Assembly: GCA_965242865.1 (NCBI GenBank)
Contig: CBDETK010000013.1
Location: 5,440,001 to 5,504,000 of the forward strand
From: Candidatus Latescibacterota bacterium
GTDB lineage: Bacteria; Latescibacterota; UBA2968; UBA8231
Length of the DNA stretch: 64,000 nt
Direction of reading: 5' to 3'
The notes beneath the pieces were generated by a model. The model was given only the letters and a program-made list of their open reading frames with translations, was not told where the DNA came from and searched no databases. Position numbers and translations under genes: made by a program. Position 1 is the stretch's first letter. Each line of letters opens with the position of its first letter. Positions 8,563-47,326 of the stretch are shown piece by piece.

Positions 8563-8563
8563 C

Positions 8564-25854: not shown

Positions 25855-28599
25855 CTACGATCGCTCGACGCGCACCTGATCCTTCAGGTCGAGATCGTCG
25901 AGCACCTGCCGCAGCTCGGTTTCCACGGTCTGGGCAAATTGCGCGGGGACGCGCACGGTGAATTCTATGCCGACGCAAAGGTCTTCTCCAGAGCGCAGCT
26001 TGGGCAGCAGTTTGGTTCCCAAGCGATTCCAGACTTCGGGCGGCACAACGCCGGTGAGCCTAAGCGCGGTCTTTTGATTGGCTGGACTCGGGGCCGGGGC
26101 CGGCTGGGGTGGAGGCTCGGGGCGCGGCGCGGGTTCCGGTTCTGGCTGGGGCGCATCTTCAGGCGCGGCTTTGAGTGCTTGGGCCTTGGCTTTGGCTACC
26201 AAGAACACGTTCTCCTCAAACACCACATCCTCGGCAGCGACCGCCTCTTCATACCACAGCCGATTGAGGTTGGCGCCGGAGGCTAGGCCGAACTCTCCCC
26301 GCGCCACAAACTCAACGATCTTCTGACGCAAGATCGCGTCGGGATCGATCAGCCGCGTCAACGCGCCGTTCAAAAAACTCTGGCGCAGGCTCGTCAGCGG
26401 CCACGCCCCCGCGTCTTTGAACGCGGCCGGCCAGTGGCGGTCGATGTAGCCGGCCCCCACGTTCTCGTTGAGCAGGGCCTCGGCTTTCAACGCACTGATG
26501 ATCCGTCCGCAGAGGGTTTGGCTGGCACTGGCGTGGCCGGCTCCGAGGTCGATGATCTTGAGCTGGTGCTCTTCTCGATTGTCCGCCAGCGCGACAAAGC
26601 GGTAGCCAGCCCATACCTCGTCCTTGGCCGCTTCCTCTGCGTCGCGAACGTGGGCCTGAAGCTCGGCGCGGTCCGCACGGTCGTATTCTGAGCCGAGGAC
26701 GCCCTCGGCCACCTCGTGCGCGACGCGCTTCCAAGCGAGCCATAGCTCGACCTTGTCGCGCAGTTCGCGCCCCGGCTTCCGCGCACACCAGACCAACGAA
26801 CCGCGGTACAGCCGGGGCGCGGTGCCCCGCTCCTGCGTCCAATCGCCAATGCGCTCGATCACTCGGTTGCCGCTGGGCCATTCCTCATCCGGGTCGAGGA
26901 CGATGAGGGCCAAGCGCGGCGAATCCGGGACTGCGGTGCTGTCTTGGGGGAAGAAGCTCGTCGGCAGGGTCGCACCGCGGTTGAACTCTTCCTCGACCAG
27001 CTTGCGGATCGCCGGCTTGATCTCGGCGGTCTCGTCGAGCGACGCCCGCCGGTCGCTGACGACCTTGCGCAGGGTCGCTTGGTGGTGGATGCGGTAGCCG
27101 TCTGTGCCGACTTTGCGGATAAAGAACCCCGACCCTTCGAGGGCGGTCGCCGCGCTGTCAATCGTCGTGGTTTCGACTTGGGGCTCCCCGAGCGCAAAGC
27201 GCAATTCCGGCAGATGGGCCACCTTATCTACCTGCCCGCCAGAGGACTCAAACAGGATGGCCGTGCCCACGCGGCGGTGGATGTCGCGCAACGCGCCCGT
27301 GGCATCGGCATCGAGCGGTCTGGCCCGGGCCGTCAATCCCGCGAGGTCGGCGTCAATCGCCACGTCGAGCCGCGACTCGCCCAACTGGCCCAAGACCACA
27401 GCGCGGAACTCGGGCACATCCAACGGCGCCGCCCCCAGCGTAATCAGCGGCTCGGTGCGCGCCTTGGTAAATTGCTCGCGGGCGGCCCAAGAAATCCATT
27501 GCGCGAGCATGGCCAGCGCCCCGCGGGTTTGCTGGAACTGAGTGAGCGCGCGCCACTTGCGCTGAAAGACCGAAAGGGTGGCCGGATGAAAGGGATAGCA
27601 CGCGGCAAATCGGCCCCGCAAAAACTCCTTGGCCTTGGCTTCGGTCGTCGCGGTATCGACCGCCAGCCACTCGGCCGGTAAGCGGGCAGTGCGTTCAAAG
27701 CACCAGTCCGCGTACGTCTTGGCGACGCGCTTGCGAACGCGCTCGCTGCCGAGGTCCTCAAACAACCGCCGACGCACCACTTCGCTGATCTCGGATTCGT
27801 CGTTGGCAATTAGATCGCGGGCGACGCGGCGCACCACCTTGGTGATTCGGTCTTGCCACTGCTGATCCCAATCGGTCATTTCGACTTGGCTGCGCGGCAG
27901 GCTGATGACCGCGGCGGCCTGCGTGCTGCCGGTGACCGCGACGGTCAGGTTTTGTAGGAAGGCGTGGAAAGGCTCGGCTAGGTCGCGGTGGCGGTTGACG
28001 AAGTTCAGGACTTCATCGAACAACAGCAGCACGGGTGCGTCCGCCGCGGCGAATACGTTGGCGAGTGCCTCGGTGCCCGGTGGCGTGGTTTTTGCGGTCG
28101 CCCCGAGCGCGGCCACGCCCGTTTCGCCGGCCAGTTGGCGGGCTAGATCGATCCAAGGCGTCTCTCGGCCCTCTGCCGGGTCCCAAGCATTGCCGACGAA
28201 GACGCCGACGCGGGCGGGCGGAGCTTTGGCAAGCCCCGCCTCGTTTAGGAGGTCTGCCACCCCGAGGAACTGGGCGGCCTCTGCGCCGGCCTTGGCGATG
28301 TGATACAGGGAAGCGAGGGTATGGGTCTTGCCGCCGCCGAATTGGGTGACGAGCGTGAGGACCGGGGCTGTGTTCTCGGTCTTGCCGGAAAGTCGCCGGA
28401 GGACCATGCCGGCGTGTTCCTTTAGGGCGCGGGTGAAGCAGGTGCGCGAAAAAAATTGCGCGGGCTCGCGGTAATCGGCCGGAGCGGTTTGGGCGACGAT
28501 TTGCTCTAGGGCGATGGCGAACTCGTCCGGGCTGAACGAGCGGCCTTCGCGCACTTCCCTGCGGAGCGTTACGATTTTGTACCAAGGGTCGAGGGCCAT
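25855..28599 (-). CDS. DUF499 AAA+ ATPase (restriction-like/BREX-related system)
   Basis: MALDPWYKIVTLRREVREGRSF..DEFA, TQFGGGKTH Walker A, LLFDE, YPFHP, FQQTRGAL. Confidence 0.9.
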   Translation of the reverse strand: MALDPWYKIVTLRREVREGRSFSPDEFAIALEQIVAQTAPADYREPAQFFSRTCFTRALKEHAGMVLRRLSGKTENTAPVLTLVTQFGGGKTHTLASLYHIAKAGAEAAQFLGVADLLNEAGLAKAPPARVGVFVGNAWDPAEGRETPWIDLARQLAGETGVAALGATAKTTPPGTEALANVFAAADAPVLLLFDEVLNFVNRHRDLAEPFHAFLQNLTVAVTGSTQAAAVISLPRSQVEMTDWDQQWQDRITKVVRRVARDLIANDESEISEVVRRRLFEDLGSERVRKRVAKTYADWCFERTARLPAEWLAVDTATTEAKAKEFLRGRFAACYPFHPATLSVFQRKWRALTQFQQTRGALAMLAQWISWAAREQFTKARTEPLITLGAAPLDVPEFRAVVLGQLGESRLDVAIDADLAGLTARARPLDADATGALRDIHRRVGTAILFESSGGQVDKVAHLPELRFALGEPQVETTTIDSAATALEGSGFFIRKVGTDGYRIHHQATLRKVVSDRRASLDETAEIKPAIRKLVEEEFNRGATLPTSFFPQDSTAVPDSPRLALIVLDPDEEWPSGNRVIERIGDWTQERGTAPRLYRGSLVWCARKPGRELRDKVELWLAWKRVAHEVAEGVLGSEYDRADRAELQAHVRDAEEAAKDEVWAGYRFVALADNREEHQLKIIDLGAGHASASQTLCGRIISALKAEALLNENVGAGYIDRHWPAAFKDAGAWPLTSLRQSFLNGALTRLIDPDAILRQKIVEFVARGEFGLASGANLNRLWYEEAVAAEDVVFEENVFLVAKAKAQALKAAPEDAPQPEPEPAPRPEPPPQPAPAPSPANQKTALRLTGVVPPEVWNRLGTKLLPKLRSGEDLCVGIEFTVRVPAQFAQTVETELRQVLDDLDLKDQVRVERS

Positions 28600-28608
28600 T
28601 TTCAGTTC

Positions 28609-28735
28609 CTATTGATTTGTTATCTGCCGTAATTTGGCGCGAAGATCGTCCAAAAACGCCTTTAGCGACGAATCGCTCTTCCCTGCTCGATAGAAGTCCA
28701 TACCCTCTACCAGTTCAGAAGCGAAGATTACTCAT
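28609..28735 (-). pseudogene. Remnant of ATPase partner gene (start fused to last ~38 codons)
   Basis: ATGAGTAAT overlaps ATPase end, followed out of frame by FASELVEGMDFYRAGKSDSSLKAFLDDLRAKLRQITNQ*. Confidence 0.55.
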
Positions 28736-29972
28736 CAATGAGTCCGCGCAGTATCAGGCTTTCAAACATACCATCTTCCATCTGGCTGGCGAGTGCCGCC
28801 GCGATTTCTGTATCCTGAAACAGCGAGCCTGTAACATCGAAGGGGTCGATCACCGTCCCCTGATTCGCAAGGCGGACATTGAAGAGGCCAATATCGCTTG
28901 ATTGTGTCTCGCGCTTCATCTTCATGATTGCATCGACAAACAGTGGTGAATGCGTGGTGACAACAACTTGGCCTCGACGCTCCTCGACAACAGAGAACAG
29001 AAGCCGAGCGATCAGTTCGAGCCGGCGTGGATGAACGCCGTTTTCGGGTTCCTCCAGTGTTAGGAGAGAGCCGCCCCAAGGGTTCGCAGCGATGGTGCAG
29101 AGTGCGAGAACCCGCAGCGTTCCTTCAGATAAGATGCGAGAGGAATACTCTACGCCTGCCTGCTGGACCAACAGATCCAAGGTGCCGCGTCGCTCGTCTA
29201 GTTCGACGTTTAGCGTCTCAATGCTCGGTACGATTGAGCGCAATGTTCGCAGGACGGCAGCAAAATACTTGGGGTGCTCAGCTCGGAGCTTATATAAAAA
29301 TGACGCGATGTACTCGCCGTGAATGCCAATATCCAACACGTCGGCCGGGGACTCCTCCGCCCGCATCTGCATCCGTGGCTCGAAATAGTACGTGCGCCAG
29401 TTCAGCAACTCTGAACGGACTTGCTCTAGCCAAGGGTATCCGTTGCCGCCCAAGCTCCGGTCAGACAGAATAGAGTGGTTCAAGCCGACCGGCTCCTGTC
29501 GCGGATGAGCCGGCTTGCCCTTGCGGCGGATGTGGAAGTTAGATCCCACGCGCTCAATGGCCGCGGCCCCCTTCGGGTTTCCGGCCGCACTGAGTTGAGC
29601 CAAATACTCGTCGGCAACGCTGAGTTGTCCCGATCTAAAATCTATTTCCGGCTCGACGCGATATCGATAACCTCCTTTCTCAGTAGCCAGATCGGCCTCC
29701 AGTGTAAACCGTGCAGATTGTTTCTGAAGCAAAGCGGGTAGTCCTTCCGCAGAAAAAGAGAATGCTTCAAAGGCATAACCGCGTACCGGAAACGATCCTC
29801 CGAGTGCGTCGAATAGCGTACGTGCGTTGCCCATCCACGAAAGAGCTTGGATGGCGTCCAGCAGATTGCTCTTGCCAACAGCATTAGGCCCAAAAAGGAC
29901 CGCCAAACGGGGCAGGTCGACCGTGACTTCGCTGAGCGACTTGAAGTTGCGGACGGTCAGTCTCTTGAGCAT
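28728..29972 (-). CDS. ABC-type (AAA_21) ATPase
   Basis: FGPNAVGKSN, LSEGTLR, LEEPENGVHP, TTHSP. Confidence 0.9.
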   Translation of the reverse strand: MLKRLTVRNFKSLSEVTVDLPRLAVLFGPNAVGKSNLLDAIQALSWMGNARTLFDALGGSFPVRGYAFEAFSFSAEGLPALLQKQSARFTLEADLATEKGGYRYRVEPEIDFRSGQLSVADEYLAQLSAAGNPKGAAAIERVGSNFHIRRKGKPAHPRQEPVGLNHSILSDRSLGGNGYPWLEQVRSELLNWRTYYFEPRMQMRAEESPADVLDIGIHGEYIASFLYKLRAEHPKYFAAVLRTLRSIVPSIETLNVELDERRGTLDLLVQQAGVEYSSRILSEGTLRVLALCTIAANPWGGSLLTLEEPENGVHPRRLELIARLLFSVVEERRGQVVVTTHSPLFVDAIMKMKRETQSSDIGLFNVRLANQGTVIDPFDVTGSLFQDTEIAAALASQMEDGMFESLILRGLIDE

Positions 29973-29984
29973 TTGCGCTCTCCT

Positions 29985-30055
29985 ATCGCGGTATCCCCCA
30001 GCGACTCCAATTTCGTTACCCAGCCATTGAACCGAAGGCATTTAGCGCGAATCAC
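29985..30055 (-). pseudogene. DUF4276-like gene remnant
   Basis: GTG overlapping upstream TGA reads VIRAKCLRFNGWVTKLESL, resembling the DUF4276 C-terminus (IR..C.RF..W...LE.L). Confidence 0.55.
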
Positions 30056-30621
30056 GGGCGTCCTCCGAGCAGGTTCTTCTGCCAGAGCTCGCCCGGTGTG
30101 AAGTTATCGTCGAGCCATACCTGATAGTCATCTGGGGATAGCTTGCGAACTTCAGTACGACCGTCCCGTAGCTCTAATACGAAAATCTCGTCGAGACCGA
30201 ACGCATCAACCAGCAAGGGCGATTGTGTTGCCACAATGACCTGCCTGTCCTCGGCGAGGGACTTTATCATACCCCCGACCAAAGCGATAGCGGCCGAACG
30301 GTCGGGCTGAGCACGGGAAAGCATGAACCGATAGTCGCCATAGCCCTCATCGATTCGCAATCTAACCTCGGCCTCTATGCGTGGCGTCCGTCGGCTGCCG
30401 CCATGTAATTGGTCATCGGCTCCTCCTTGGCTACCGATGAACTCGGCGAGCCTGCGATGCTCGAGCATCCAACTCAGCATTTCAAAGAAGCGAATGAAAT
30501 TCGACTTGCCTGAGCCGTTGGCACCGATTAGGACCGCCGCCTTGGGAATTCCCGCAAGCTCAACATCGGCCAACGACCGGAAGCCGCGGATGCGGACGGA
30601 TTCGATCATTGTTGAGTCCAT
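30052..30621 (-). pseudogene. AAA_21 ATPase with in-frame internal deletion
   Basis: GANGSGKSN and ATQSP...WQKNLLGGRP present; ABC signature and Walker B absent; only 189 aa. Confidence 0.75.
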
Positions 30622-30631
30622 TTCGTTCCTT

Positions 30632-30663
30632 TCACCTCGGTGCCGCCAAGAGCATGGCGTCGA
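30632..30663 (-). repeat. Copy of DUF1156 methylase 3' end (DAMLLAAPR*)
   Basis: TCACCTCGGTGCCGCCAAGAGCATGGCGTCGA versus 34289-34320 TCACCTCGGCACCGCCAGCAGCATGGCGTCGA. Confidence 0.85.
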
Positions 30664-30668
30664 TGTAG

Positions 30669-31145
30669 TTATTTCTGGCATAGATCTCGTCGTCCAAGTA
30701 GTCTCTTGTGGGTAGGCGTGAAACGCTGGTTCGTACGTGTGGTGTAGATCTTGCCTCGTGGTCGGTTTATCAGATCCCTGTTCTTGAAATCCTCGCCTAG
30801 TCTCTTCTCTCTTTCACTGCTCTCATTAGTAAACAATAGACGCGCTCCACTGATTTGGGCTAAGGCGATGATGTGCGAATCGTCTGAAACGCATTTACCC
30901 TTGATCGCCTCTGCTTTAGCGTTGACCTGATCTTCGTTCATGGTCCTCATTTTGCCCGCTTCTCCTAACGTACTCGCCCATTCTCTAAATGTTGGCGAAC
31001 CGTCTTTAAGTTCTTCAAGTAGCTTGCCGCCGACTATCAAGCGTTCTGATCCTGCGTTGATCCAATCATAGAATTTCTCGCCTGCCTCAGATTGACTGGG
31101 ACCGAAAACTTCATTGGCTACATTCGCATCAACAATTGCACACAT
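30669..31145 (-). CDS. PIN-like domain protein
   Basis: IVDANV N-terminus and DDSHIIALA...LLFTNE, PIN-type acidic pattern. Confidence 0.6.
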   Translation of the reverse strand: MCAIVDANVANEVFGPSQSEAGEKFYDWINAGSERLIVGGKLLEELKDGSPTFREWASTLGEAGKMRTMNEDQVNAKAEAIKGKCVSDDSHIIALAQISGARLLFTNESSEREKRLGEDFKNRDLINRPRGKIYTTRTNQRFTPTHKRLLGRRDLCQK

Positions 31146-31148
31146 GGC

Positions 31149-32507
31149 TCAACTCCTTTCAGCCTTTCGTCTCTTCCAAATAGACCGTTCCATTTCATTG
31201 ATGAAGAACTGCCGATATACCGGAGGGGCATTCAGGACGTTTCCCTCGGCGTCTATTTCTAGTGAATGAATATGTACGTCGAGGTCGCGTCGCTCGAAGA
31301 AGAGAATGGAAACGTCTTCGGGTTTCAGGTTCCCCTCGCTGTCGCGAACGTCCATGCGCACCCGGCTGAGCAGGTGATCGCTATGCGTCTCAATCACCAA
31401 TTGACGCTCCGGCCCGGCAATTTGGCAGAATAGACTGCCCAGAGCGGCTTGGGCACTGGGATGGAGATGTACTTCCGGTTGCTGGAGCAGAAAAATGGAC
31501 GGGGCGTCTGAACGCAGTAACTCGGTGACGACAGGGAGCACTTGGCTCACTCCATAACCTACGTCAATCAAGTTGCGTTGCGGCCCCTTAACCCTTTTCC
31601 CGTATTTTCGGATCTGCACCTGAAAAGGCTCGGTCTCCTTCTTGTCGAAAGACTTGACCGAGATTTCGTCAAAAAGGCCGGCGTCTTGACCAAATTTTTC
31701 GAGCGCGTCCTTGAGGGTTTCCCATTGCTTTTTATGCTGGAAATACAAATTGGACAGGTACATGGGAATGTAGTCGCCTTCGGGGTCCTGTGTCGGGAGT
31801 GCGGGGTCGTAGGTACGACGTGGCTTGGAGCGAACAGGTGCGCTGGCATACGGTTCGGATGCGTGAAAGAGAAAACGGCCTGATTGGCTAGCGTATATAA
31901 CCTCTTTGATTTTTTTTAAGTCCGCTTTTGTAGGAGCCGCTGCACCTGCTAGTGCGTTCCATTGATGATTTTCTTCGAGCGTTTCTGTAAAATGCCAAAT
32001 AAGCGACAAAAGAGAAAGTCGATCGTCCCGACTCCAATCCAGAAAGTGGACGGCCTCATCAGATAGATGATGCTTCCAAGCCCCCCTTTTTGTCCCGAAG
32101 CAAACCTCCCTTTGCGAGAGACGATATTCGATCCACGTATCCTTTTGAGAAAGGCGTCTGCGCTCCGGCACCGGGACGCTTCCCTTCTTTTTGAAGATCG
32201 CTTCAAAATGGAACGGTTCTGTGTCGCTACGTATCTGAGTAGTGAATGCAAATCCCGCCTCAAAAGCATCTGCTCGACCACCCCGTCCTCGGTAATGGGC
32301 GATCTCGTCGAAGCTGCCGAGGTCGTAAGGCTCTTTCTTAAAATCGGGGTTTTTCTGCCGGTAGGCGACATCCCAGAGTGCCCGGATCAGGGCCATGAAC
32401 GAGGTCTTGCCGGTGCTGTTCTCCCCGACAAGTAGCGTCAGTGGTGCTAAACGGGCGGTCTGTTTTTCGCGGAAGCAGCGAAAGTTTTTGATCGTGATTT
32501 GGTCCAT
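31149..32507 (-). CDS. ABC-type ATPase with DUF3696-like C-terminus
   Basis: GENSTGKTS, DVGYGVSQVLP, QQPEVHLHP, IETHSDH. Confidence 0.88.
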   Translation of the reverse strand: MDQITIKNFRCFREKQTARLAPLTLLVGENSTGKTSFMALIRALWDVAYRQKNPDFKKEPYDLGSFDEIAHYRGRGGRADAFEAGFAFTTQIRSDTEPFHFEAIFKKKGSVPVPERRRLSQKDTWIEYRLSQREVCFGTKRGAWKHHLSDEAVHFLDWSRDDRLSLLSLIWHFTETLEENHQWNALAGAAAPTKADLKKIKEVIYASQSGRFLFHASEPYASAPVRSKPRRTYDPALPTQDPEGDYIPMYLSNLYFQHKKQWETLKDALEKFGQDAGLFDEISVKSFDKKETEPFQVQIRKYGKRVKGPQRNLIDVGYGVSQVLPVVTELLRSDAPSIFLLQQPEVHLHPSAQAALGSLFCQIAGPERQLVIETHSDHLLSRVRMDVRDSEGNLKPEDVSILFFERRDLDVHIHSLEIDAEGNVLNAPPVYRQFFINEMERSIWKRRKAERS

Positions 32508-32528
32508 GCGATTCCCTTTTTTGTGCTT

Positions 32529-32640
32529 TTAGCGCGGCACCGCTAGTAGGAGGCGTTTTTCGTTGCAGCCTTGAGGATAGGGGGCGGATAGGGCGTTGGC
32601 AAGGCGGAGGAAGTCCTCGGCACAAATCAGCGTCCGCAGC
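32529..32640 (-). repeat. Copy of DUF1156 methylase 3' end (~110 bp)
   Basis: Reads LRTLICAEDFLRLANALSAPYPQGCNEKRLLLAVPR* versus LRTLISAEQDRGPDFLRLANALSALYPQGCNEKRLLDAMLLAVPR* in the gene. Confidence 0.92.
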
Positions 32641-32649
32641 CTCTAAGGC

Positions 32650-32707
32650 GATGGCGGATGAGAGATGCGGATACGACCGCCGCACACCGATCTACTAGGA
32701 ATCTCAC
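32650..32707 (-). pseudogene. DUF5615 PIN-like toxin N-terminal remnant
   Basis: GTG overlapping DUF433 stop reads VRFLVDRCA, typical DUF5615 start, then breaks into the methylase-end copy. Confidence 0.55.
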
Positions 32708-32955
32708 GAATCCGCAATCGATACAGCGGCCAGTGTATCTTTGGCAATAATGGCATGCGCGTAGGCCGTGCAGGCGCGAATGTCGTCTGGTTCCAGTTCG
32801 GGGTAATCCGCTAGAATGGCCTTTGTCGTCACGCCCTGTGCCATCAGGCTCAGGATGAGTTCCACTGAAATTCGCATGTCGCGAATGATGGGCTTGCCGC
32901 CAAAGACTTCCGGGCGGGCGGTGATGCGCTTGAGCAGTTCGGGATTAGGGATCAT
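32704..32955 (-). CDS. DUF433 antitoxin
   Basis: RITARPEVFGGKPIIRDMRISVE...ILADYPEL..DDIRAC. Confidence 0.92.
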   Translation of the reverse strand: MIPNPELLKRITARPEVFGGKPIIRDMRISVELILSLMAQGVTTKAILADYPELEPDDIRACTAYAHAIIAKDTLAAVSIADS

Positions 32956-32979
32956 GTCCTCTCCGTAGATTACGTCCGG

Positions 32980-33027
32980 CTACCTCGGCACCGCCAGCAG
33001 CATGGCGTCGAGTGAGGCGTTTTTTTC
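32980..33027 (-). repeat. Copy of DUF1156 methylase 3' end (DAMLLAVPR*)
   Basis: CTACCTCGGCACCGCCAGCAGCATGGCGTCGAG...GAGGCGTTTTT matches 34289-34333. Confidence 0.9.
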
Positions 33028-33041
33028 GGAACCAATAGGAG

Positions 33042-33269
33042 TCATCGGTTCTGCGTGATGAGCCGACTTCTGCTTTCCTCGCGTGGCTTTGAGGGCGGCT
33101 TGGTTTCAAAGGGATTACTTACCCGACTGCCGCTATCTTCCCACACTCCCAATTCTTCGAGTTCTCGGCGCATTTGTAGCGCCTCTTCGACGATCTTAGG
33201 ATCAACCGCCGGATTCTTTGCGATCTGCTCTTTGGTGAGCATGGGCACAAGTAGGTCTTTTTTTAGCAT
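33042..33269 (-). CDS. Small hypothetical protein
   Basis: AGGAG RBS; 75 aa directly after protease. Confidence 0.6.
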   Translation of the reverse strand: MLKKDLLVPMLTKEQIAKNPAVDPKIVEEALQMRRELEELGVWEDSGSRVSNPFETKPPSKPREESRSRLITQNR

Positions 33270-33280
33270 AGAGACTCCTT

Positions 33281-34174
33281 TTAGGGGAAATAACGGTTAT
33301 GGACTAGACTATTTGCTTCTTCCTTGAATGCAAGATCTCCGAAAAACCAGAAGTATTCCTTGATCAAGTTGCTCAACGTAGGATCGGCTTCTAAGTCATC
33401 AATTTTGAGCTTCAATTCAGCAAGAACATCTCGGTTAATTCCACGTCCATGAGTACCCCATCTTTTTTGATCGTTAAGTGCTTGGGCGATTTCTTCCGCA
33501 CGTTTCTCCTTTTCTTTTTGAGTAACAGGTTTCTTTGTAGAACCGTGTGTTGACCAATCCTTGAATTTGTACTTTACAAGCCAATGTTGAATGAGTCGAA
33601 CTGATAGCTCGGCTGCCAATTCATATTGACGCAAATCAGCAGCATCAAGTTTCTGAAGCAGCACCAAATCCGCACTTGTCAGGGTGCCTTCTTCGGCTTT
33701 TTTGACAAAGCGTTCGTACTGTTCAAGATAAGAAAGAACCGATATAGGGATGGGTTTGTCTTCTATATACAATTGGGGATCAACCGGCCCCAAACAAGAG
33801 AAGTAGTCCATCAAAATTGCGTCCCCGGACATCACGAGCACCGTCCCTGCCGACATCGCCTTATCGGGAATGAGAAACTTCACCTCTTTGTAGTAATGCC
33901 TGAGCGTGGTAACAATGCGTTCGGCGACCTCGACAATGCCACCAGTTGTATCAATGATCACGAGCGAACCTTCGCGGCGTTCCGGGACCCTTTCGATAGC
34001 CAACCTGACGCGGTGATCGACCGACTCCATGATTGGACCGAAAATTGTCAGCGCATCCATACAGGTATGCTTCTCAATTTCAGCGAGCTTGGAATTAAGC
34101 CACTCGACCGCGATTGAATCGCTCGTATCTGGATTCTTTTGTGGGACCGGCTGCGCGGTGATGTCATCGGCCAT
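33281..34174 (-). CDS. SDH/ClpP-fold serine protease
   Basis: DTTGG, AMSAGT, LGPVDPQ, THGRGI motifs; lower GC. Confidence 0.85.
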   Translation of the reverse strand: MADDITAQPVPQKNPDTSDSIAVEWLNSKLAEIEKHTCMDALTIFGPIMESVDHRVRLAIERVPERREGSLVIIDTTGGIVEVAERIVTTLRHYYKEVKFLIPDKAMSAGTVLVMSGDAILMDYFSCLGPVDPQLYIEDKPIPISVLSYLEQYERFVKKAEEGTLTSADLVLLQKLDAADLRQYELAAELSVRLIQHWLVKYKFKDWSTHGSTKKPVTQKEKEKRAEEIAQALNDQKRWGTHGRGINRDVLAELKLKIDDLEADPTLSNLIKEYFWFFGDLAFKEEANSLVHNRYFP

Positions 34175-34288
34175 GGAGTGAACTCCTGCTCTCGGGGATT
34201 CGATTCATGTTGTCTCTGCGTATGCTTCGATTTTTAGAGTACTTAACCAGAATTTTTGCTTTGCGTCAACCTTTTGCTGAATCACGCG

Positions 34289-37200
34289 TCACCTCGGCAC
34301 CGCCAGCAGCATGGCGTCGAGGAGGCGTTTTTCGTTACAGCCTTGAGGGTAGAGGGCGGATAGGGCGTTGGCAAGGCGGAGGAAGTCGGGGCCGCGATCT
34401 TGCTCGGCGCTGATTAGCGTCCGTAGGGCGGTGGCGTGGCCGGTGGATTGGAGCAGCATGGCGGTGTGGACGCGGTCGAGGGTGGTGTCGCCAAGCGTGG
34501 CGGAAAGGGGGTCGTCGGAGGATTCGCCGTATTGTGGGCGCGGCTCCCGGACGAGCGTGGGGGTGCTGTCCTGCTGGTCGGGGAAGAGCGTCTGCTGGGC
34601 GTCGGCTCCGCTTTCGATGTACGTGGCTGCGGCGGCCGCGCCGTCTTCGCCGAAGAGCTTTTGGGCGCGCTCGGCTACGGAGAGGAGGCGCACGACGCCC
34701 TTTTCTTGGCCGATGATGCGGTCGGTTTGGGCGGCGAGGTCAATGCCCATGGGCTGGGCGAAGCGGCGCACGACATCGAAGGGGAGCGCGAATCCCGTGG
34801 CCGCGGCTTGGGCGACGGCTTCTTCGTCGGCCTCGTCGGCTTGGTCCTGATTTTCTGCAACAGGGGCCGTGCTCTGGAGCGTCCACAGGAAGAGCGCGGT
34901 TAGGCGGGCGTCCGCTTCCAATGCGCCGTGCGTTTGCGCCTCGGCCGTGCCGAGCACCTGTTGCAGGGCGGCGCGACCGACGACTTCCCAGACTTTTTCC
35001 AAGTAATCGGGCAGGCCGATTAGATCGCCTTCGGCGGTTTCGACAGCGCGGTAGCGGCTGAAAATTTCGAGGGCCGGGCCGATGCAGGCGAAAACCAGAT
35101 CGGCCCCGCGGATGCCTTCGGCTTGCAAGCGGTCGATCCAGTCGGCGACGCGGACCGGCAGTTCGCGCAGGACATCGGCCCAATCGCCGATGGGGGCGTC
35201 GTCGGGACGGGGGCGGCAGATGAGGTGGACGCTGGTGGCGAGGGCAGCGGAATCGCGGGCGCGGAGACGGGTCGCGCTTTCGGTAGCAATCGGCCACGAT
35301 CCGGTTATGGTCCAACCGCCGCGAATCATGCCCGAGAGCAACGCTTCCCAGCCTTCCGTTGTTTTATGAGCGAAGACGACCGAGCCGATGCCTTCTTCGC
35401 TCAGTACGCGGCGACCTTCGGCAAAGGCTTTCGCCATCGTCTCCTCGAACCATGCGCGGTCTTTTGGGCGGCCGTCGGCCTGCTTGGTCTCGTCTTGTAC
35501 GGCCTCGGCGGTCTTGGGCGAGAGCAGGTTGTCAGGATCGAAGGGATCGCGCAGTAGCGGATTGTTGGGTAGCGTACGTTTGAGCCAGACGAGGAAGAAG
35601 TCGGAGAGATCGGAATAGGGAATCGCGTCGTAGTACGGCGGGTCTGTGAAATAGACGCTGGTGGCTTGGTCGGGGAGTGGGTGGTCGGTGGCGTCGGCGG
35701 ATTGAAGTTGGCCTGAAACTGCAGATCGGGCGAATTGTATGACTTCACAAGTTGCACCTATACCTGATAGGAAAACCCCCCGCGCATTGCTCTTTGGTGT
35801 AGATTCACAGAAATCCCACACAATGGGAATGGCTTGACGTGCAAAGAGATTTACAGGGTTTTCAGCATTGCTTTCCCACCGAGTAAGGGAGTTGTTGCCA
35901 TCCGCCATTCTGCCTAAAAGCAATGCGATTAGGGTTTGTTGAATGCTTGGCGTGAGCGTTACGCTAGATCGGCCCAACCCAACCAACGCCACCTTCTGCC
36001 GCGCCGTAAACAAATCCCCCCACTGCATCATACCATATCGCTGCACACGAAAGCCCAACGTGCCGATTGGTGGCAACGGCTCATCCGGCACCGGGCAAAG
36101 CCCCTGCCGCCCACCCCGCTCCCACTCGTCCAACATCCGCGCCACCCGCTCCTGCGCCACCCGCACCGCCGCATAATCCGCCCCGTCTCGCCGGGCCGCA
36201 CCGTCACCACCGCCGTCATCCGCGCCCCACCCGTCCGCCTTCCCTCCGCGTCAAAAACCACATCCGCGCCGCCCCGTTGGGCCGCAAGCTGCGCCCGCAC
36301 CCGCTCCGGCGGCAGCACCGCGCCGCAGCACAAACAAGTCGCTCGCGCTCGCGCCACCGTGCCGCCGCGCACCTCTCGATCCGCCTGCGGCTCAACCACC
36401 GCAAACTCGACGCTCGGCGGCTCCCCCTCGCAACGCTCAACCCGATGCTGCAACGCCCGCTTGCGCTTGGCCTTCTTGCACAACCAAAACGAGCGCATCA
36501 GGGGAATCTCCGCGCCGCAGTTGGGCGCTTCGCAGCGCACCGTGCGCGCCCACAAGTAGGCAATCGGCGTGGCCCCATCCGGGTCCCTCGGATACAGCTC
36601 GGCCAATTCCCGCTCGGCCTGCCGCTTAATTTCGCCGCCGACCCGACGCAACTCCTCGGCCAGCCCCGGCCCGTGCCGCGGAATATCCTCCAGCATCACC
36701 TTGAGAATCAGACACGCCACCGGATTTAGGTCGCTGGCAAACGCCTCGCAACCCAGCCGCAACGCCTCCAGCGGAATCGACCCGCCGCCGGCAAACGGAT
36801 CCACCACCAGCGGCGGCTCCGCGCCATGCGCCGCTTGCACCAACGCCCGGCTCACGTCGAGATGGGTGCGGTCCGCCGCATTCTTCCAATTGGCAAAGTT
36901 GGCAATGAACGCCAGTAACCCCTGCCGCAGCTCCAAGTCATTCGCCAGCGGCTGCCGCACCGCGAGCAGAATGTTCCGCGCTTGCCGCTTAAAGTCCTCC
37001 GGACAGTGCGCGTCGCACGGGTCTGGCAGCAGCAACGCCAGCAACACCGCCCGCGACGAGGCCAACGGCCGCCGCGCCCACCACAAGTGCAACGTACTCG
37101 GATGCCCATGCCGAATCGACTTCTCCCGCGCCGCGTACTGAGAAACCTCAGCAATGGGAAAATCAACTTCGGCGAGACGTTTGCAGACGCGGGGGATCAT
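34289..37200 (-). pseudogene. DUF1156 adenine DNA methyltransferase, frameshifted near 36175
   Basis: HLWWARRPL, DPFAGGGSIP (motif I), Zn-ribbon Cys pairs, FTDPPYYD (motif IV); frame shifts between ...PGETGR and DYAAVRVAQ. Confidence 0.88.
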
Positions 37201-37281: not shown

Positions 37282-37491
37282 TTATCCGCGCTCCAGTTCG
37301 GCCGGATGCATGCTGAGATATTCACGAACCTCCAACTGCATTCGGTCGATCTCGGCGAGAAATCCCGCCACCGAGCCTCGGTAATTTTCAGGATGGGTTT
37401 CCACATTGCGTAGATGGGCTATTTGACGCTGGAAATGCGCGATTCGCCCCAGAGTGACGTCGAGTTCGCGATCGTTTGCAATCATGGTCAT
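37282..37491 (-). CDS. Small helical protein, partner of DUF6932 gene
   Basis: MIANDRELDVTLGRI...EVREYL; overlaps upstream stop. Confidence 0.7.
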   Translation of the reverse strand: MTMIANDRELDVTLGRIAHFQRQIAHLRNVETHPENYRGSVAGFLAEIDRMQLEVREYLSMHPAELERG

Positions 37492-37928
37492 TCCCCCGTG
37501 ATTTCAACGATGCCACGTTCAGTACCATCGCGTTTGAGTTGCCAATCTTCGATGGCGGATTCTTCGCCACCGATGGCCGCCAAGCGGCGAACCCAGAACA
37601 CACTACATCCAAAATGATCTTGGGCCGTTCCGTGATAGAACAGGAGTCGGGCTTCGCCGACTAGTGACCCCATATCGAAATTGTCATCCATAATCATGAA
37701 GATGTCCACATCGTTGGGTTCGTATTTTTCAGTAATAAACGAGCCGAATACGATGAATCGAGCTAGATAGCCAGTTTGCGCCGCGATCTGATAGATGCGT
37801 TCGAGGCGCATGGCAAGCAGCTTTCGGCGATGCGATCCCGTTCCAAAACGGCTGACTGTTTCGGCGAGCGAAGCCGTATAGACGCCAAAAGGAAGATCAC
37901 CCATTGCGGTAAAGTCAGGTAGGGGCAT
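37488..37928 (-). CDS. DUF6932-like nucleotidyltransferase
   Basis: G.LP.G, FGSFITEKYEPNDVDI, RGIVEI. Confidence 0.8.
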   Translation of the reverse strand: MPLPDFTAMGDLPFGVYTASLAETVSRFGTGSHRRKLLAMRLERIYQIAAQTGYLARFIVFGSFITEKYEPNDVDIFMIMDDNFDMGSLVGEARLLFYHGTAQDHFGCSVFWVRRLAAIGGEESAIEDWQLKRDGTERGIVEITGE

Positions 37929-38068: not shown

Positions 38069-41000
38069 TCACTCAGTTCCTGATTTTTGAACAATAAATG
38101 CTTTCATACCACCTGCATAGAATTGAATTTGAACTTTATGACTTGACGATATACTAGTATCTATCATTGAATTTCTTTTTTTTAAGAAAAGAGGTATCTT
38201 ATACTGAAGATCTATAATACGCACGTATAATCTTTTTTTATATTTGACTATAACAGCATCAAATATCTCAGGATTACCTTCATCATCTTTCCAATAATCT
38301 TGCATACATAAGCTAGTTCTAAAACGTTGCTGAATTTTTCTCATGTGTCTCCTAAAATAAGAGAATTTTCTGTTATATGCTTCTGCGATACCCAAAAAGT
38401 AATGATATCTCATAGGGTCTTGTTCAAGTATAGGCCCATTAGAGCGAACTAAATCAAATAACTTAGATCGGCTGGCACTATGGTGTAAGTTACGCCCATA
38501 GTGCTGGAACAATAGCTTTGATACTTCATCTAAGTGAGTATATTTTTCAAGTTCACGCACCTTTGCACCTAAAGCATCCTCATCATTTTTCTGGGAGTAA
38601 TAATAGAAGTATAAAATTAGGGCGTATGGCTTTAAATCTTCTTTTTTATACAAGTCACTTATAAAATTGATATATTTTTCATCATTAGCAGAAGAAGAAT
38701 GATGCTTTTTTCTATATCTGGCTTCTATTTCGGCAATGGTTTCAATCCCTTCATGAAGCTGTCTTTTCGCTCGATCTAATAAATCTTCAATCGAAATTAT
38801 ACTACGCAATTCTGTTTCTTGGGTAAGAGAAAATGTTTCTAAATACCATATCTCAAACCGTAAGTATTCTCGGAAACTGTATATACTAAAGGGATCTTCT
38901 ATCATTTTTATATAAAATAATTCCCTCGCTTCGTCAATATAAGGTTGTACTGCACTATGTATAACTTGCTCACGATCTAGCAACTGGGCTAGTTTAAAAT
39001 TGAGAACTGCTCGTCGATGTGTTAATCTGTGACTTCTTCGATATAAGAAACTTTCTGCATATATGATACGTTCGATGCCACGTTCTAAAGATTTCTGAGT
39101 TCCTCGGTATTGTAAATTTGTAGCGTAGTGAAGGTTGAAATGAGGATCATCAGAAAATTCATTTGCACATATATCATATAGATTATCAATCTTAGATTGT
39201 GTAAATTCTTCTGCCGTTATCATTGCTTTTAGTATATCTACAATTAAACGGGAATTATGAGGAGTATAAGTTAATTTTTTAAATATTTTTTGGTATTCCA
39301 CAAATCTTTTATCTGAATCACTTAGATACATCTCTATAAGTAAGTCTGAAATTACCGGATGACGAGTTCGAAAATATAGGTCGGGTTCATCTCCCGATAT
39401 ATTTTTTTCTTCTTGGACCAAAATTCCTTTTGCATCGTATTCTATGACGTCACGTTTGAATGTACCCCAATCTTTAGACACCAGTTTCATCAATAAACTG
39501 GAAGGCATTAAAATTTTGAATCTATATAATAATGATGTATATAGAAATGACTCCTTAGCCTTTTCTGATAGTTGTTCATATGCGCTCCGTAATATCTGGT
39601 CATGATGTCCATCTGTAACTATGGATAGCAGAGACACAAAAGCATCTCCTTTATAATCTCGAACAACCGTAGAGGCGAGAGAGTTTCTTTCTTTTTCATC
39701 TCTGACAGTGATAATCTTTGAGTCATCTAATTTCTTAATCAGATCTGATGCTTCTTTTTTGTTAAAATTAGTATTGATCTCCAGTTGATGCAGGTTGGGA
39801 TATGATCGGTTATGGGTTAATTTTTGTAGGATATTTTCCCTTATGGGAACCAGCATCACTATATTAGATCCAGAGAGTTGTTGTATGCTGAGATTCGACC
39901 GCAATTCAATCATTGATTTAAAGAAACTGTCTACCTCACATTCATCAAATAGAAGCATGATATTTTCAGTGTCAACAGCACTGATTAGTTCACATAAATC
40001 TACTTCTCTAATATCTTGAGGCTCTAATATCTCAAATACTGCTACATCTAAGTCAGAGTCAAGAATACTATGGACTAATCTATAGCAGAAAGTCGTTTTG
40101 CCGACACCATAGGATCCAGTTATTGCAATAATAGGAATTACAAATTCTTCAGAATTGAAAAATTGTTCTAATTTATTGATTATCTCTTTTTGACAATCTA
40201 ATCTTATTACATCATAATTCTGCTTTATCGCAAAATAAGATGGTCTTTCTCCCGTATAAAATTGCTCTGGTGAAATGTATTCAAATCTGGTATGTGGATT
40301 AATCTGGACAAGACTGCTTCCAAGCCTCTTAATAAGCCTATTAGATATATTTATGGGAGAACTGTCTTTTTGGCGAAACTGCGGTTTTCGCCTTCTTATA
40401 GCTGATTCTTCACTCGATTTTTCCCAATCTTCATATTTTTGATAGAATTCAGAAGCAGTGCATTTTATAATTCTAATACTGCTGCTCTCAAGGTATGGTA
40501 GCATATCTTCCTGTATGGTGGGATCTACCAATAGTATATCTCTCTTATTTCGGTAATTATATCGATCAAAACGATCAAGAAGAAATTTAGCAAACGGATC
40601 TCTAAATGAGTATCCAATCACGAGAAGTTGAATACGGGGCGAGATGTGTTCTAGGGCCTGTAACACTATCTTGTAAAAACCGTTAACGGATTCAAAATCT
40701 CTTGTTGAAAAAATGAATGGATATTTGGCTCTATCACTAATACAACCATTTAGCTTAATGTATTTTATCTCATCGTTTGCTGGATTGTAATGATATTCAT
40801 GCAAATTTTTTGCAGGCTTCAGGATTTTATTTTCGTCCGATGTACTAAATACTCTATCAAAAGCCTTCTCAACTATAATATCCAAATTGGTCGTAATGAT
40901 CTCTTTCCAAGGTAGGCGAGCAATTGTAGTATGAAATGCAGTGGGTTCTAGATTTCTAAGACATTTTTCTACTATATCATCAAACTCTTTGCGATCAAAT

Positions 41001-41233
41001 TGAGGATTTCGACTAAGCACATCAACATATTCAATAATACTGTCGGTTTGATAACTATTTCCAGACTTTGCTTTGTGATAACCCATTAATTGACTACTTA
41101 GATACACATTATCATCGGTTATAGAAGCACCTGCGCCTAAGAACAGAATCGTATTACCCGATATGATATTAGGAAATATGTCTCTTCGTAAAGTTTCACT
41201 TCCTTTTTCTTGGACATCTGTTATATGGTACAT
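38069..41233 (-). CDS. SIR2-like + STAND P-loop + TPR/helical (+ possible OB) protein, Avs/SAMD9-like
   Basis: FLGAGAS, ITTNLD, KLNGC; GSYGVGKTT, LLFDE; RTRHPVIS; markedly AT-rich DNA. Confidence 0.8.
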   Translation of the reverse strand: MYHITDVQEKGSETLRRDIFPNIISGNTILFLGAGASITDDNVYLSSQLMGYHKAKSGNSYQTDSIIEYVDVLSRNPQFDRKEFDDIVEKCLRNLEPTAFHTTIARLPWKEIITTNLDIIVEKAFDRVFSTSDENKILKPAKNLHEYHYNPANDEIKYIKLNGCISDRAKYPFIFSTRDFESVNGFYKIVLQALEHISPRIQLLVIGYSFRDPFAKFLLDRFDRYNYRNKRDILLVDPTIQEDMLPYLESSSIRIIKCTASEFYQKYEDWEKSSEESAIRRRKPQFRQKDSSPINISNRLIKRLGSSLVQINPHTRFEYISPEQFYTGERPSYFAIKQNYDVIRLDCQKEIINKLEQFFNSEEFVIPIIAITGSYGVGKTTFCYRLVHSILDSDLDVAVFEILEPQDIREVDLCELISAVDTENIMLLFDECEVDSFFKSMIELRSNLSIQQLSGSNIVMLVPIRENILQKLTHNRSYPNLHQLEINTNFNKKEASDLIKKLDDSKIITVRDEKERNSLASTVVRDYKGDAFVSLLSIVTDGHHDQILRSAYEQLSEKAKESFLYTSLLYRFKILMPSSLLMKLVSKDWGTFKRDVIEYDAKGILVQEEKNISGDEPDLYFRTRHPVISDLLIEMYLSDSDKRFVEYQKIFKKLTYTPHNSRLIVDILKAMITAEEFTQSKIDNLYDICANEFSDDPHFNLHYATNLQYRGTQKSLERGIERIIYAESFLYRRSHRLTHRRAVLNFKLAQLLDREQVIHSAVQPYIDEARELFYIKMIEDPFSIYSFREYLRFEIWYLETFSLTQETELRSIISIEDLLDRAKRQLHEGIETIAEIEARYRKKHHSSSANDEKYINFISDLYKKEDLKPYALILYFYYYSQKNDEDALGAKVRELEKYTHLDEVSKLLFQHYGRNLHHSASRSKLFDLVRSNGPILEQDPMRYHYFLGIAEAYNRKFSYFRRHMRKIQQRFRTSLCMQDYWKDDEGNPEIFDAVIVKYKKRLYVRIIDLQYKIPLFLKKRNSMIDTSISSSHKVQIQFYAGGMKAFIVQKSGTE

Positions 41234-41496: not shown

Positions 41497-41628
41497 CTAT
41501 CGCACCCACCACAAGTGCAGCGTACTCGGATGCCCATGCCGAATCTACTTCTCCCGCGCCGCGTGCTTGGAAACCTCGGCAATGGGAAAATCGACTTCAG
41601 CGAGACACTTGCATTCATGAGGGATCAT
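41497..41628 (-). pseudogene. Copy of DUF1156 methylase 5' end
   Basis: [42 protein letters not shown] versus [44 protein letters not shown] at 37200. Confidence 0.92.
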
Positions 41629-42020
41629 AGTACGCGTTTCTCGGCCCAACGGACGACGGCTTCGGCGATAGTGATGGCTTCGGCGTACTCCTGAGCGGTA
41701 ACAGGCTCTATATCGCCGGGATAGCGCGTGGTGGTGGCGTATTTAGTCAACTTGCAGGCTTGACTGATCGGTGCTGGTATGACTTCTCCCTCGTCTTCGA
41801 GTAGTGATAATAGGCGGTCGAGATCATGCACGTAAGGGAACTCGATGTTGCGTACGATCATCACGGCCTTGATAGATTTTTCGGCGGCCTGCTGAGCATT
41901 GAAGCACAAATTTTCGAGATAGACCCCGGGCACCTCGTTCTTTGCTTGAGTCAGGTCGCTTCGGGCGCGGTTTATCCATTCCCGGGGATCGCCAGGCGGA
42001 AAGCGTTCAGGAGGCTTCAT
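41625..42020 (-). CDS. HEPN domain protein (copy 2)
   Basis: CFNAQQAAEKSIKA, YVHDL, TRYPG. Confidence 0.9.
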   Translation of the reverse strand: MKPPERFPPGDPREWINRARSDLTQAKNEVPGVYLENLCFNAQQAAEKSIKAVMIVRNIEFPYVHDLDRLLSLLEDEGEVIPAPISQACKLTKYATTTRYPGDIEPVTAQEYAEAITIAEAVVRWAEKRVL

Positions 42021-42321
42021 AGACGATCCTTCCTTCCTGTAGGGCGGGCTTGATGACCAATGCGTGGGTGTCCTTATACCGCTCGACCGATTGGGGCGTG
42101 ACGACGATGGCGTCAACTGCTGCGCCAACCCTGTGCAGGTTCTGATAAATCTGCCCCATAAGTTCAAGCGGGTTCGCGCACTCTTTTATAATAAGCAGAT
42201 CGACATCGCTGTGGCGGTTCATGTCGCCGCGAGCAGCCGACCCAAAGAGAATGATTTTCTCTGGTTGGGCAACTTTCACAATGCGGCGAATAATGTCGTC
42301 CAGAATCGCTTGTTCGAGCAT
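42007..42321 (-). CDS. Minimal nucleotidyltransferase (MNT, copy 2)
   Basis: ILFGSAARG....SDVDLL. Confidence 0.9.
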   Translation of the reverse strand: MLEQAILDDIIRRIVKVAQPEKIILFGSAARGDMNRHSDVDLLIIKECANPLELMGQIYQNLHRVGAAVDAIVVTPQSVERYKDTHALVIKPALQEGRIVYEAS

Positions 42322-42381
42322 CTTCTTAATCCCACGTTCTATCGTTTGCAATCACGTTGAATGGCGTGTACCGATTGCGGA

Positions 42382-47070: not shown

Positions 47071-47080
47071 TTTGGCCCTC

Positions 47081-47326
47081 TCATTCGTCCCGTGTTTTCC
47101 ATTTTTCAGAAGTCTTTTGACCTTCCCTAACTTCCACCGGCTGCTTGAGCGCGTCAACGCTCAGATAGTAGTGAGCTACCTTGGTGACCTCGTGCCACGG
47201 AAATCGCACGGGGTCTCGGATCGGCTCTTGAAGCTCTGGCGCACTCGCGCAGTGGGTCACCACGTAGAGCCAGTAGCAGTCGCGGCGATCCTCGGCGACG
47301 CGCCGCTCGTTGGGCGTCAGCAGGAT
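47081..47326 (-). pseudogene. 3' remnant of SNF2 helicase-DUF3883 gene
   Basis: ILLTPNERRVAEDRRDCYWLYVVTHC...IRDP..FPWHEV.KV.HY, the C-terminus typical of DUF499-associated helicases; no upstream body. Confidence 0.75.

Follow-up and report, generated by a model that had tools for sequence, protein, structure and literature searches.

The stretch analysed here, called the window throughout, comprises 64,000 nucleotides (nt) of the genome of Candidatus Latescibacterota bacterium (assembly GCA_965242865.1, contig CBDETK010000013.1, positions 5,440,001 to 5,504,000 of the forward strand). All genes between 25.8 and 50.4 kb of the window lie on the minus strand and form an island around the Hma system of Payne et al. 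(PMC8565338), which PMC12839542 renames as a system related to bacteriophage exclusion (BREX), BREX-related system (type 1). The core genes of the system encode a Snf2-type helicase with a C-terminal nuclease (hmaA), a DUF1156 N6-adenine methylase (hmaB) and a DUF499 ATPase (hmaC). For comparison, genome contigs were scanned with the C-terminal open reading frame (ORF) of hmaB. From 170 pattern matches, 127 relatives were obtained, of which the best 80 were used; they correspond to 79 related loci, labelled L001 and so on, many of them from chromosome-level Latescibacterota metagenome-assembled genomes (MAGs). Positions near the hmaB 3' end are counted backwards from its stop codon (for example, -33).

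From hmaA, only amino acids (aa) ~1076-1143 of 1147 are left in the window and nothing else (length taken from the HmaA of L016), and a full hmaA is present in 45 of the 79 related loci. The reading frame of hmaB changes near 36169-36175, between homologue residues 344 and 351, and this change may be either a real pseudogene lesion or a base-calling error. We call the window core decayed because hmaA is gone and hmaB is frameshifted. Large deletions are also found in hmaA, hmaB and hmaC of L012, an independent chromosome-level assembly with about 91% nucleotide identity. The island is thus a single decayed Hma operon, both of whose internal junctions are packed with accessory modules of defence and toxin-antitoxin types. 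Its cargo array outlasts the decaying scaffold, although several cargo genes are eroded too. Scattered among these modules are five relics of core gene ends, three from the hmaB 3' end and one each from the hmaB 5' end and the hmaA 3' end (Table 1). As a separate observation, the last ~35 residues of HmaB, mostly ending in LLDAMLLAVPR, are near invariant across phyla while the remaining protein is 50-86% identical (74 loci and the window); third codon positions vary in the gene end, and therefore the constraint acts on the protein.

Table 1. Core genes, gene-end relics and accessory genes of the island, in order of position in the window.
Feature	Position	Strand	Description and evidence
hmaC	25855..28599	minus	DUF499 ATPase; intact ORF, 914 aa; Pfam DUF499; PADLOC HmaC E 1.6e-93
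DUF4276 remnant	28609..28731	minus	last ~40 codons of the partner gene of the preceding ATPase, mostly deleted; tblastx and translation match DUF4276 C-termini of L017, L020 and L058
ATP437	28728..29972	minus	AAA_21 (OLD-type ABC) ATPase, HEC-01A-like; Pfam, PADLOC
Conserved block	29996..30056	minus	~57-61 nt, in relatives just upstream of hmaC; blastn to L002, L004, L006, L007 and L012
ATP209	30052..30621	minus	HEC-01A-like ATPase with internal deletion of ~540-600 nt; PADLOC match in two pieces, middle present in relatives
Relic C, hmaB 3'	30632..30664	minus	TGA; -33 to stop; left junction 4-6 nt past the PIN-like stop
PIN-like protein	30669..31145	minus	158 aa, partner of the upstream ATPase; weak Pfam PIN match, pair kept in L002, L011 and L056
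ATP452	31149..32507	minus	AAA_15/AAA_21 ATPase with DUF3696, NsnB-like; Pfam, PADLOC
Relic B, hmaB 3'	32529..32639	minus	TAA; about -160 to stop; gaps of 15 and 12 nt
DUF5615 remnant	32643..32707	minus	~290 nt absent relative to L006; comparison with relatives
DUF433 protein	32704..32955	minus	83 aa; Pfam E 3.8e-22
Relic A, hmaB 3'	32980..33040	minus	TAG; clear over 32980-33024, degenerate to about -66; left junction 1 nt past the stop of the 75-aa ORF
75-aa ORF	33042..33269	minus	no family match (Pfam); adjoins the protease in L012 too
ClpP-like protease	33281..34174	minus	SDH-type serine protease, 297 aa; Pfam PF01972 E 1.4e-16; L012 copy 98% identical
hmaB	34289..37200	minus	DUF1156 N6-adenine methylase; two ORFs through a frameshift near 36169-36175; Pfam DUF1156 E 2.3e-23; PADLOC HmaB E 2.8e-54 and 3.3e-61 (two ORFs)
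DUF6932 protein	37488..37928	minus	nucleotidyltransferase-like; Pfam
SIR2-STAND protein	38069..41233	minus	SIR2-like and STAND NTPase, 1054 aa; 33-34% guanine plus cytosine (GC) in a ~60% GC genome; Pfam, PADLOC
hmaB 5' relic	41501..41628	minus	spans the start codon and the gene up to about nt 128; codon 28 is an in-frame stop; 87.5% identity over 128 nt (E 5e-40)
Two tandem MNT-HEPN pairs	41625..43078	minus	78.6% nucleotide identity over 701 nt
AlbA_2 + HATPase_c_4 protein	43115..44350	minus	Schlafen-like; Pfam
PHP + ABC ATPase protein	44359..47157	minus	Ppl-like; Pfam, PADLOC
hmaA 3' relic	about 47100..47326	minus	aa ~1076-1143 of the 1147-aa helicase-nuclease
DRT4-type reverse transcriptase	47522..49072	minus	defence reverse transcriptase; PADLOC Drt4 E 1.8e-152
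Second AlbA_2 + HATPase_c_4 paralogue	49118..50356	minus	island end, next to the core DUF4432 gene; Pfam, self-blastn

Between the end of hmaB (34289) and the start of hmaC (28599) lie three extra copies of the hmaB 3' end, each directly before a different cargo module. When window positions 34100-34800 were compared with the whole window by blastn, the copies appeared at 32548-32615 (68 nt, 95.6%, E 5e-26), 32982-33024 (43 nt, 97.7%, E 4e-14) and 30632-30663 (32 nt, 87.5%, E 2e-5), and the top unrelated match reached E 0.011. Each relic runs to an in-frame stop on the minus strand (TAG at 32980, TAA at 32529 and TGA at 30632), and the start codon of the cargo follows 10-22 nt beyond. Thus blastn and a reading of the strand confirmed the three copies, with their coordinates and stops, that an earlier note had described from the sequence; alignment with relatives lengthened the extents of the relics to those of Table 1. 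A repeat search and a self-blastn of 25000-51500 recovered the same copy pairs and, in addition, the hmaB 5' relic, which the note had missed along with the hmaA 3' relic. In transcription order from hmaB to hmaC, the array reads as follows: the protease and the 75-aa ORF, relic A, the DUF433 gene with the deleted DUF5615 gene, relic B, ATP452 with the PIN-like gene, relic C, ATP209, and finally ATP437 with the DUF4276 remnant. The list of cargo given by the note proved essentially correct when examined with Pfam, PADLOC and comparison with relatives. The block at 29996..30056 is split from hmaC in the window by the ATP437 module.

Each module was also found, singly and directly, behind an intact hmaB in relatives, a point that the earlier note had set as a check. 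DUF433 genes stand in this position in 21 loci and ATP437-like genes in 10, ATP452 with the PIN-like gene in L002, L004, L011 and L056, and the protease in L012. Moreover, the end variant and the cargo are linked, a link whose absence had been set beforehand as refuting the proposal. DUF433 follows a TAG-ended hmaB in 12 of its 21 loci, including the seven closest relatives among those loci (L001, L006, L007, L008, L010, L018 and L019), ATP452 follows a TAA-ended hmaB in three of four loci, and the protease follows TGA in L012. In its stop and spacer, relic A agrees with the real hmaB ends and spacers found in L001, L007, L008 and L018, all with DUF433 next; relic B (TAA) matches L002 and L004, where ATP452 comes next; and relic C with its spacer matches a relic of L006 that precedes an ATP209 homologue. 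Each time, relic, spacer and cargo are collinear with a real hmaB end, its spacer and the same cargo in relatives. Because the stop codons and spacers of the relics match real ends in relatives that have the same first cargo, the comparison supports the view, already put forward in the note, that the relics are the ends of different hmaB alleles and not products of one local duplication. The cargo need not share the history of the core: ATP452 is 66-67% identical to its homologues in L002, L004 and L011, compared with 83%, 86% (best segment) and 70%, respectively, for the C-terminal part of HmaB. The best relatives of ATP437 are in other phyla (L025, 77% identity; L017, 69%), the nearest being in a Spirochaetia MAG. 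Judged by these identities, cargo and core histories disagree.

Relics are neither restricted to the hmaB 3' end nor to the window. When the loci were searched with a profile built from the final 108 nt of hmaB, 89 matches at E <= 1 were obtained. Of these, 19 lay away from annotated main ends and comprise ten relics, one second complete hmaB (L020), five main ends with shifted stops and three noise matches. The ten hmaB 3' relics are distributed over the window (three), L012 (two), L060 (two), L006, L008 and L077 (one each, that of L077 being weak at E 0.21), and L060 is a Phycisphaera MAG, from a different phylum than the window. When profiles for all six gene ends were run over the 79 loci, relics were found for four, the hmaA 3', hmaB 5', hmaB 3' and hmaC 5' ends, and none for the outer ends, hmaA 5' and hmaC 3'; four hmaA 5' matches outside annotated genes are, in our reading, the starts of fragmented main genes. 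Relics are thus confined to the four gene ends bordering the two spacers within the operon, and all lie on the coding strand. In a further scan, profiles 108 columns wide were moved stepwise over 61 aligned hmaB genes, with the incomplete main genes of L013, L029, L035, L045, L072 and L075 set aside. Extra hmaB copies turned up solely for segments at the two extremes of the gene (the first ~3 and the last ~3); no extra copies of internal segments were found among the scannable segments, four internal segments having too few rows for a profile. In the window, the hmaB 5' relic sits behind an MNT-HEPN pair and is separated from the real hmaB by the SIR2-STAND and DUF6932 genes. In L060 (11804-11961), an ATP437-like gene is preceded by an hmaC 5' relic (~110 nt) that runs straight into an hmaB 3' relic (~71 nt), and L020 carries two complete hmaB genes in tandem (7432-13940; 72% and 68% identical to that of the window) with a short hmaA 3' relic between them (10856-10921).

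The space between hmaA and hmaB also contains additional hmaA 3' ends, up to ~1 kb long, in L015 (two), L021, L025, L061, L023 and L012. Two candidates were discarded in this survey. A 123-aa ORF at 47154-47525 was rejected as a gene, since it reads the conserved hmaA 3' end in the wrong frame, and its tblastn matches in many phyla are full of stops. A supposed hmaB relic behind the hmaC 5' relic of L004 lies in a stretch common to L070 and L012 that is not clearly derived from hmaB.

The slot between hmaB and hmaC varies widely among the relatives. Measured between the hmaB stop and the start of hmaC in 68 loci including the window, its length lies between 38 and 7432 nt, being at least 273 nt in 61 of them and below 150 nt in seven. 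In 61 loci the cargo amounts to 142 ORFs with a minimum length of 70 aa, which fall into 61 clusters; representatives of 51 of the 61 clusters were run against Pfam, with matches to AAA_21 ATPases, DUF4276, DUF433, DUF5615, GmrSD, MNT-HEPN, PD-(D/E)XK and PIN. Different cassettes therefore fill the same slot between conserved genes, and mobility genes were found in only three loci among the 51 clusters scanned, in each case a DDE transposase inside the array (L012, 12653-13468; L047, 12869-14194; L056, 13083-14300). The transposases of these three loci are of the IS4/5, DDE group 1 and ISL3 types, and that of L056 separates the ATP452 and PIN-like homologues. The slot also holds, in 15 loci from several phyla (for example L019, 12375-13460), a conserved protein of ~361 aa with no Pfam match, a candidate for a regular fourth component in part of the Hma operons. 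The protease and 75-aa ORF of the window have no PADLOC match and occur, among the 79 loci, only in L012; they may form an undescribed accessory module. The same core DUF4432 gene adjoins the island in the window and in L002, L004, L007, L008, L012 and L070.

The junctions of the relics differ from one another and, in some cases, recur in front of different cargo. Independent hmaB 3' relics begin at about -33, -36, -66, -71, -96, -160 and -228. The left junction of relic B, where hmaB position -160 is joined 3 nt past the DUF5615 stop, is common to the window, L006 and L008, and the cargo that follows this shared junction is ATP452 in the window, ATP209 in L006 and DUF433 in L008. An initial view that this junction cuts the DUF5615 gene was wrong, as the junction lies past the stop in L006 and L008, and the deletion in the window is separate and internal. 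The last 33 nt of the L006 relic, with its spacer, resemble relic C of the window. Accordingly two histories may be considered: either ATP452 and the PIN-like gene entered a relic like that of L006, or they dropped out of an array like that of the window by recombination between relics B and C; in either case a relic was a substrate for recombination. Where the PIN-like gene meets relic C, the junction has a possible microhomology of 4-6 nt, and a degenerate form of it is present in L002 and L012; the junction before relic A is common to the window and L012. As a whole, the junctions are compatible with a homologous anchor combined with a microhomology join.

We consider it probable that the relics are scars, left when Hma operons with different cargo recombined imprecisely from a homologous anchor, and that they were later reused as short repeats for the gain and loss of cassettes; the hmaB 5' and hmaA 3' relics are read as recombination scars likewise. 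In such an event, DNA from another Hma operon, with a different cargo tight behind its own hmaB, would recombine with the resident operon. One side would be closed by homologous recombination in a core gene, and the other by an imprecise join within about 30-230 nt of the resident gene end, either through one-sided homology plus an illegitimate join or, equivalently, through a single crossover of a circularised fragment, which would yield the same product. Because the second side would be joined imprecisely near the gene end, the new cargo would be added rather than swapped, and the displaced resident end would stay before the old cargo. Long relics would probably be lost, since long repeats collapse and untranslated stretches are polar, and short ones would survive, providing direct repeats and homology patches at which cassettes could later be lost or exchanged. 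The shared relic B junction with its three different cargos supports the part of the earlier note's proposal that holds cassettes to have accreted in tandem, with the conserved gene end acting as a homology patch; the other part of that proposal, an integron-like or att-like site, was not supported, given varied breakpoints, no conserved hairpin, no recombinase detected in the window or in the cargo clusters scanned in relatives, and relics of four gene ends.

Several points weigh against this recombination model. First, the left junctions of the window relics lie just 1, 3 and 4-6 nt past the stop of the preceding cargo, which is tighter than random illegitimate joins predict. Second, irregularities cluster near hmaB -33 to -37, where relic C has its boundary, relic B its 12-nt gap, relic A a 1-nt insertion, and the two L012 relics their boundary and gap; this could be a preferred break site. 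Third, phage integrases have been reported within 10 genes of 19.1% of hmaA homologues (PMC11232893), and the scan that found no tyrosine or serine recombinase covered 51 of the 61 hmaB-hmaC cargo clusters from 61 loci, the hmaA-hmaB spacers of the relatives not being scanned. Fourth, the first and last 180 nt of hmaB are 83-87% identical among 15 close relatives compared with up to 87-91% for internal windows, so that the idea of the termini as the best-conserved nucleotide stretches had to be given up; they are merely local identity peaks, and therefore conservation alone does not explain why the breakpoints fall at the ends. Finally, each event might be read as an insertion or as a deletion. 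Plasmids with DUF1156 homologues number 124, all below 60% identity, and they are a possible vehicle with no bearing on this locus.

The recombination model could be extended by regarding the Hma operon as a recombinase-free platform resembling an integron, in which circles of one hmaB-end relic and its cargo excise via general recombination between relics and re-enter any Hma operon through the near-invariant hmaB end, even across phyla. We think this unlikely, but it would explain why the same junctions occur in different contexts, the one that joins the PIN-like gene to a relic being present in the window, L002 and L012, and the one that joins the DUF5615 gene to a relic in the window, L006 and L008.

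Among the rival explanations, the relics might be what is left of complete foreign hmaB genes or Hma operons that were inserted in tandem and then eroded to their ends. The two complete tandem hmaB genes of L020 and the hmaA 3' relics of up to ~1 kb in L015, L021 and L025 speak for such decay, and internal deletions are many, in ATP209, the DUF5615 gene and the DUF4276 gene of the window and in hmaA, hmaB and hmaC of L012. However, erosion should leave internal-only fragments and adjacent 5' pieces, and no internal-only fragment appeared in the scannable segments; moreover, the left junctions of the window relics keep within 1-6 nt of the preceding cargo stop. We therefore hold decay of whole copies to be quite improbable.

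We give still less credence to a purely local tandem duplication of the segment from the hmaB end to the hmaC start, with the cargo later replaced or diverged and no direct accretion of foreign DNA. In L008, the last part of the relic and its spacer do match the locus's own real end and spacer, with DUF433 after both; the tandem MNT-HEPN pairs and the two AlbA_2 paralogues of the window look like local duplicates; and the fused hmaC 5'/hmaB 3' relic of L060 has the form expected of a tandem-duplication joint. Yet the modules behind the three window relics belong to unrelated gene families, the relic stops and spacers match different alleles in other genomes, and cargo identities do not follow core identities. 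Replacing the duplicates would still need recombination with foreign alleles, at which point this explanation merges with the recombination model that we favour.

Another possibility is site-specific accretion, in which small integrative cassettes would target an att site in the hmaB 3' end and carry a replacement end, the recombinase acting in trans; the operon would then be an integron-like platform, comparable to arrays of integrative elements or to the ssrA islands of Dehalococcoides. The co-oriented direct repeats of a gene 3' end that flank each module, module ends only 1-6 nt past the last stop codon, the gathering of irregularities near hmaB -33 and the integrases near 19.1% of hma loci (PMC11232893) speak for such a process. 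Nevertheless, the island ORFs of the window and its non-overlapping ORFs of at least 100 aa included neither an integrase nor a transposase, in agreement with the earlier note, and no transfer RNA or transfer-messenger RNA gene was found in the window; of mobility genes, the 51 of 61 clusters scanned in the relatives included only the DDE transposases of L012, L047 and L056. The left boundaries of the relics spread from -33 to -228, and relics of four gene ends, 5' ends included, would require four att sites. Furthermore, no intI was detected in the same ORF set, and folding of the ends gave no attC-type hairpin at the cassette boundaries of the window. An attC-like hairpin in the hmaB end was rejected, as RNAalifold found 0 consensus pairs in 70 hmaB ends and single-strand DNA folds were not clearly better than shuffles, with z values of -1.3 and -2.1 for the two strands of the real hmaB end and -0.9, -0.8 and +0.1 for the three relics. 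No motif shared by the cargo sides of the junctions was apparent by eye, and 25000-51500 had no Rfam match at E <= 0.1. The sequence comparison thus does not support a true integron or att mechanism, and an enzyme acting in trans appears unlikely because of the varied boundaries, the four kinds of relic, the lack of a hairpin and the lack of a detected recombinase; in all, we regard site-specific accretion as very doubtful. A different cause for the retention of relics, an internal promoter in the hmaB end, was not supported either: the region holds 2 promoter-like sites compared with 3.4 expected, with one weak site in relic B that is absent from relics A and C.

That strain variants of one locus were chained by the assembler through the conserved gene end is almost certainly wrong, since, even though the source is, judging by its relatives, a MAG and the repeats are short, the window's protein lies on a contig of 5,613,566 nt, the island adjoins the same DUF4432 gene in six relatives, serial chaining needs joins of cargo to gene end that are absent from simple variants, the independent L012 assembly has the same array order and two of the same junctions including that before relic A, L006 and L008 have the same relic B junction, and the relics are diverged, with insertions and deletions.

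Beyond the array between hmaB and hmaC, the other half of the island has features of its own. The low GC content of the SIR2-STAND gene suggests a recent import from a low-GC donor; the gene is missing from L012, the closest relative, apparently via a deletion that also cut the DUF6932 gene and one HEPN gene. The AlbA_2/HATPase_c_4 paralogues, ~82% identical over the first 420 nt, flank the Ppl-like PHP-ATPase gene, the hmaA relic and the DRT4 gene and so bound a second repeat-bounded unit of ~6 kb. A further Schlafen/AlbA_2 gene lies far from the island at 2468-3849 and is apparently split into an AlbA_2 ORF (3130-3849) and an ORF with HATPase_c_4 and a winged helix-turn-helix domain (2468-3133).

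How defence islands form is an open question, and most accounts invoke mobile elements or unexplained hotspots. At this locus the DNA itself records the growth of an island, each added module being marked by the leftover end of a core gene, so that its order, source alleles and later losses can be reconstructed without a mobility gene, and it shows that cargo can outlast a decaying scaffold. Should the pattern hold generally, defence genes that are conserved would be landing strips on which effectors move between distant genomes by ordinary recombination, and relic scans would be a cheap finder of cargo boundaries and of new defence genes in Hma, BREX and similar operons.

Insertions in Hma operons are themselves not new, and the earlier note's impression of an undescribed architecture needs qualification in this respect. 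Work on Halomonas meridiana reported that ~66.5% of hma systems carry gene insertions, called the region a hotspot with mobile elements as a suggested vehicle, and named AAA_21 ATPase pairs among the inserts of the hmaB-hmaC junction and Ppl, PARIS or Septu among those of the hmaA-hmaB junction (PMC11232893). The operon family is the same as here (hmaA, hmaB with DUF1156, hmaC with DUF499) and insertions are likewise common (gaps of at least 273 nt in 61 of 68 loci), but the parts of that paper available to us describe no leftover gene ends, whereas here the modules are parted by relics of core gene ends and the core has decayed. A neighbourhood census of backup effectors embedded in BREX and BREX-related loci (PMC12839542) lists cargo types that the present loci share, namely OLD-type ABC ATPases with TOPRIM or PIN, MNT-HEPN, Schlafen/AlbA_2 with a histidine-kinase-like domain, and GmrSD. 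Its main text uses none of the terms remnant, pseudogene, truncated or recombination. Thus defence-gene insertion in hmaABC has been published, and punctuation by relics was not found in the available parts of either source. Literature searches, with supplements and subscription journals outside their scope, turned up no account of relics of gene ends, be it for Hma, for BREX or for defence islands.

Arrays bounded by gene-end repeats are familiar from integrative and conjugative elements (ICEs), integrative and mobilizable elements (IMEs) and cis-mobilizable elements (CIMEs), and direct repeats of the hmaB 3' end bound the modules here in the same way. In ICESt1 and its CIME relatives, integrative elements accrete in tandem at the 3' end of fda. 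The ssrA islands of Dehalococcoides (PMC3146451) are a further case of tandem accretion at a gene 3' end. In arrays of this type, modules are bounded by repeats of the target-gene 3' end with the intact gene at one side, as is the case here. Such arrays need, however, a recombinase of the tyrosine or serine family together with an att core that is fixed, whereas here no recombinase was found and breakpoints vary; in addition, 5' ends leave relics too, and the modules measure 0.4-2 kb.

Integrons hold co-oriented, tightly packed cassettes behind one fixed point, which are read as one operon. The array resembles them in that its modules are co-oriented, all on the minus strand, and tightly spaced, and it differs in that it has no intI, attC hairpins or attI and its repeats are leftovers of coding sequence. 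A known process that adds foreign DNA through one-sided homology and an illegitimate join is homology-facilitated illegitimate recombination. In the minimal mobile elements of Neisseria, different cassettes occupy one slot between conserved genes, without mobility genes, and are exchanged via the flanking homology. Those elements usually replace a cassette cleanly, whereas in the Hma operons additions pile up together with relics, and the anchors are defence-operon genes that span phyla. In summary, the embedding of cargo in Hma is already known, and it is the relic-punctuated array, with the record of its growth, that is new among the texts searched.

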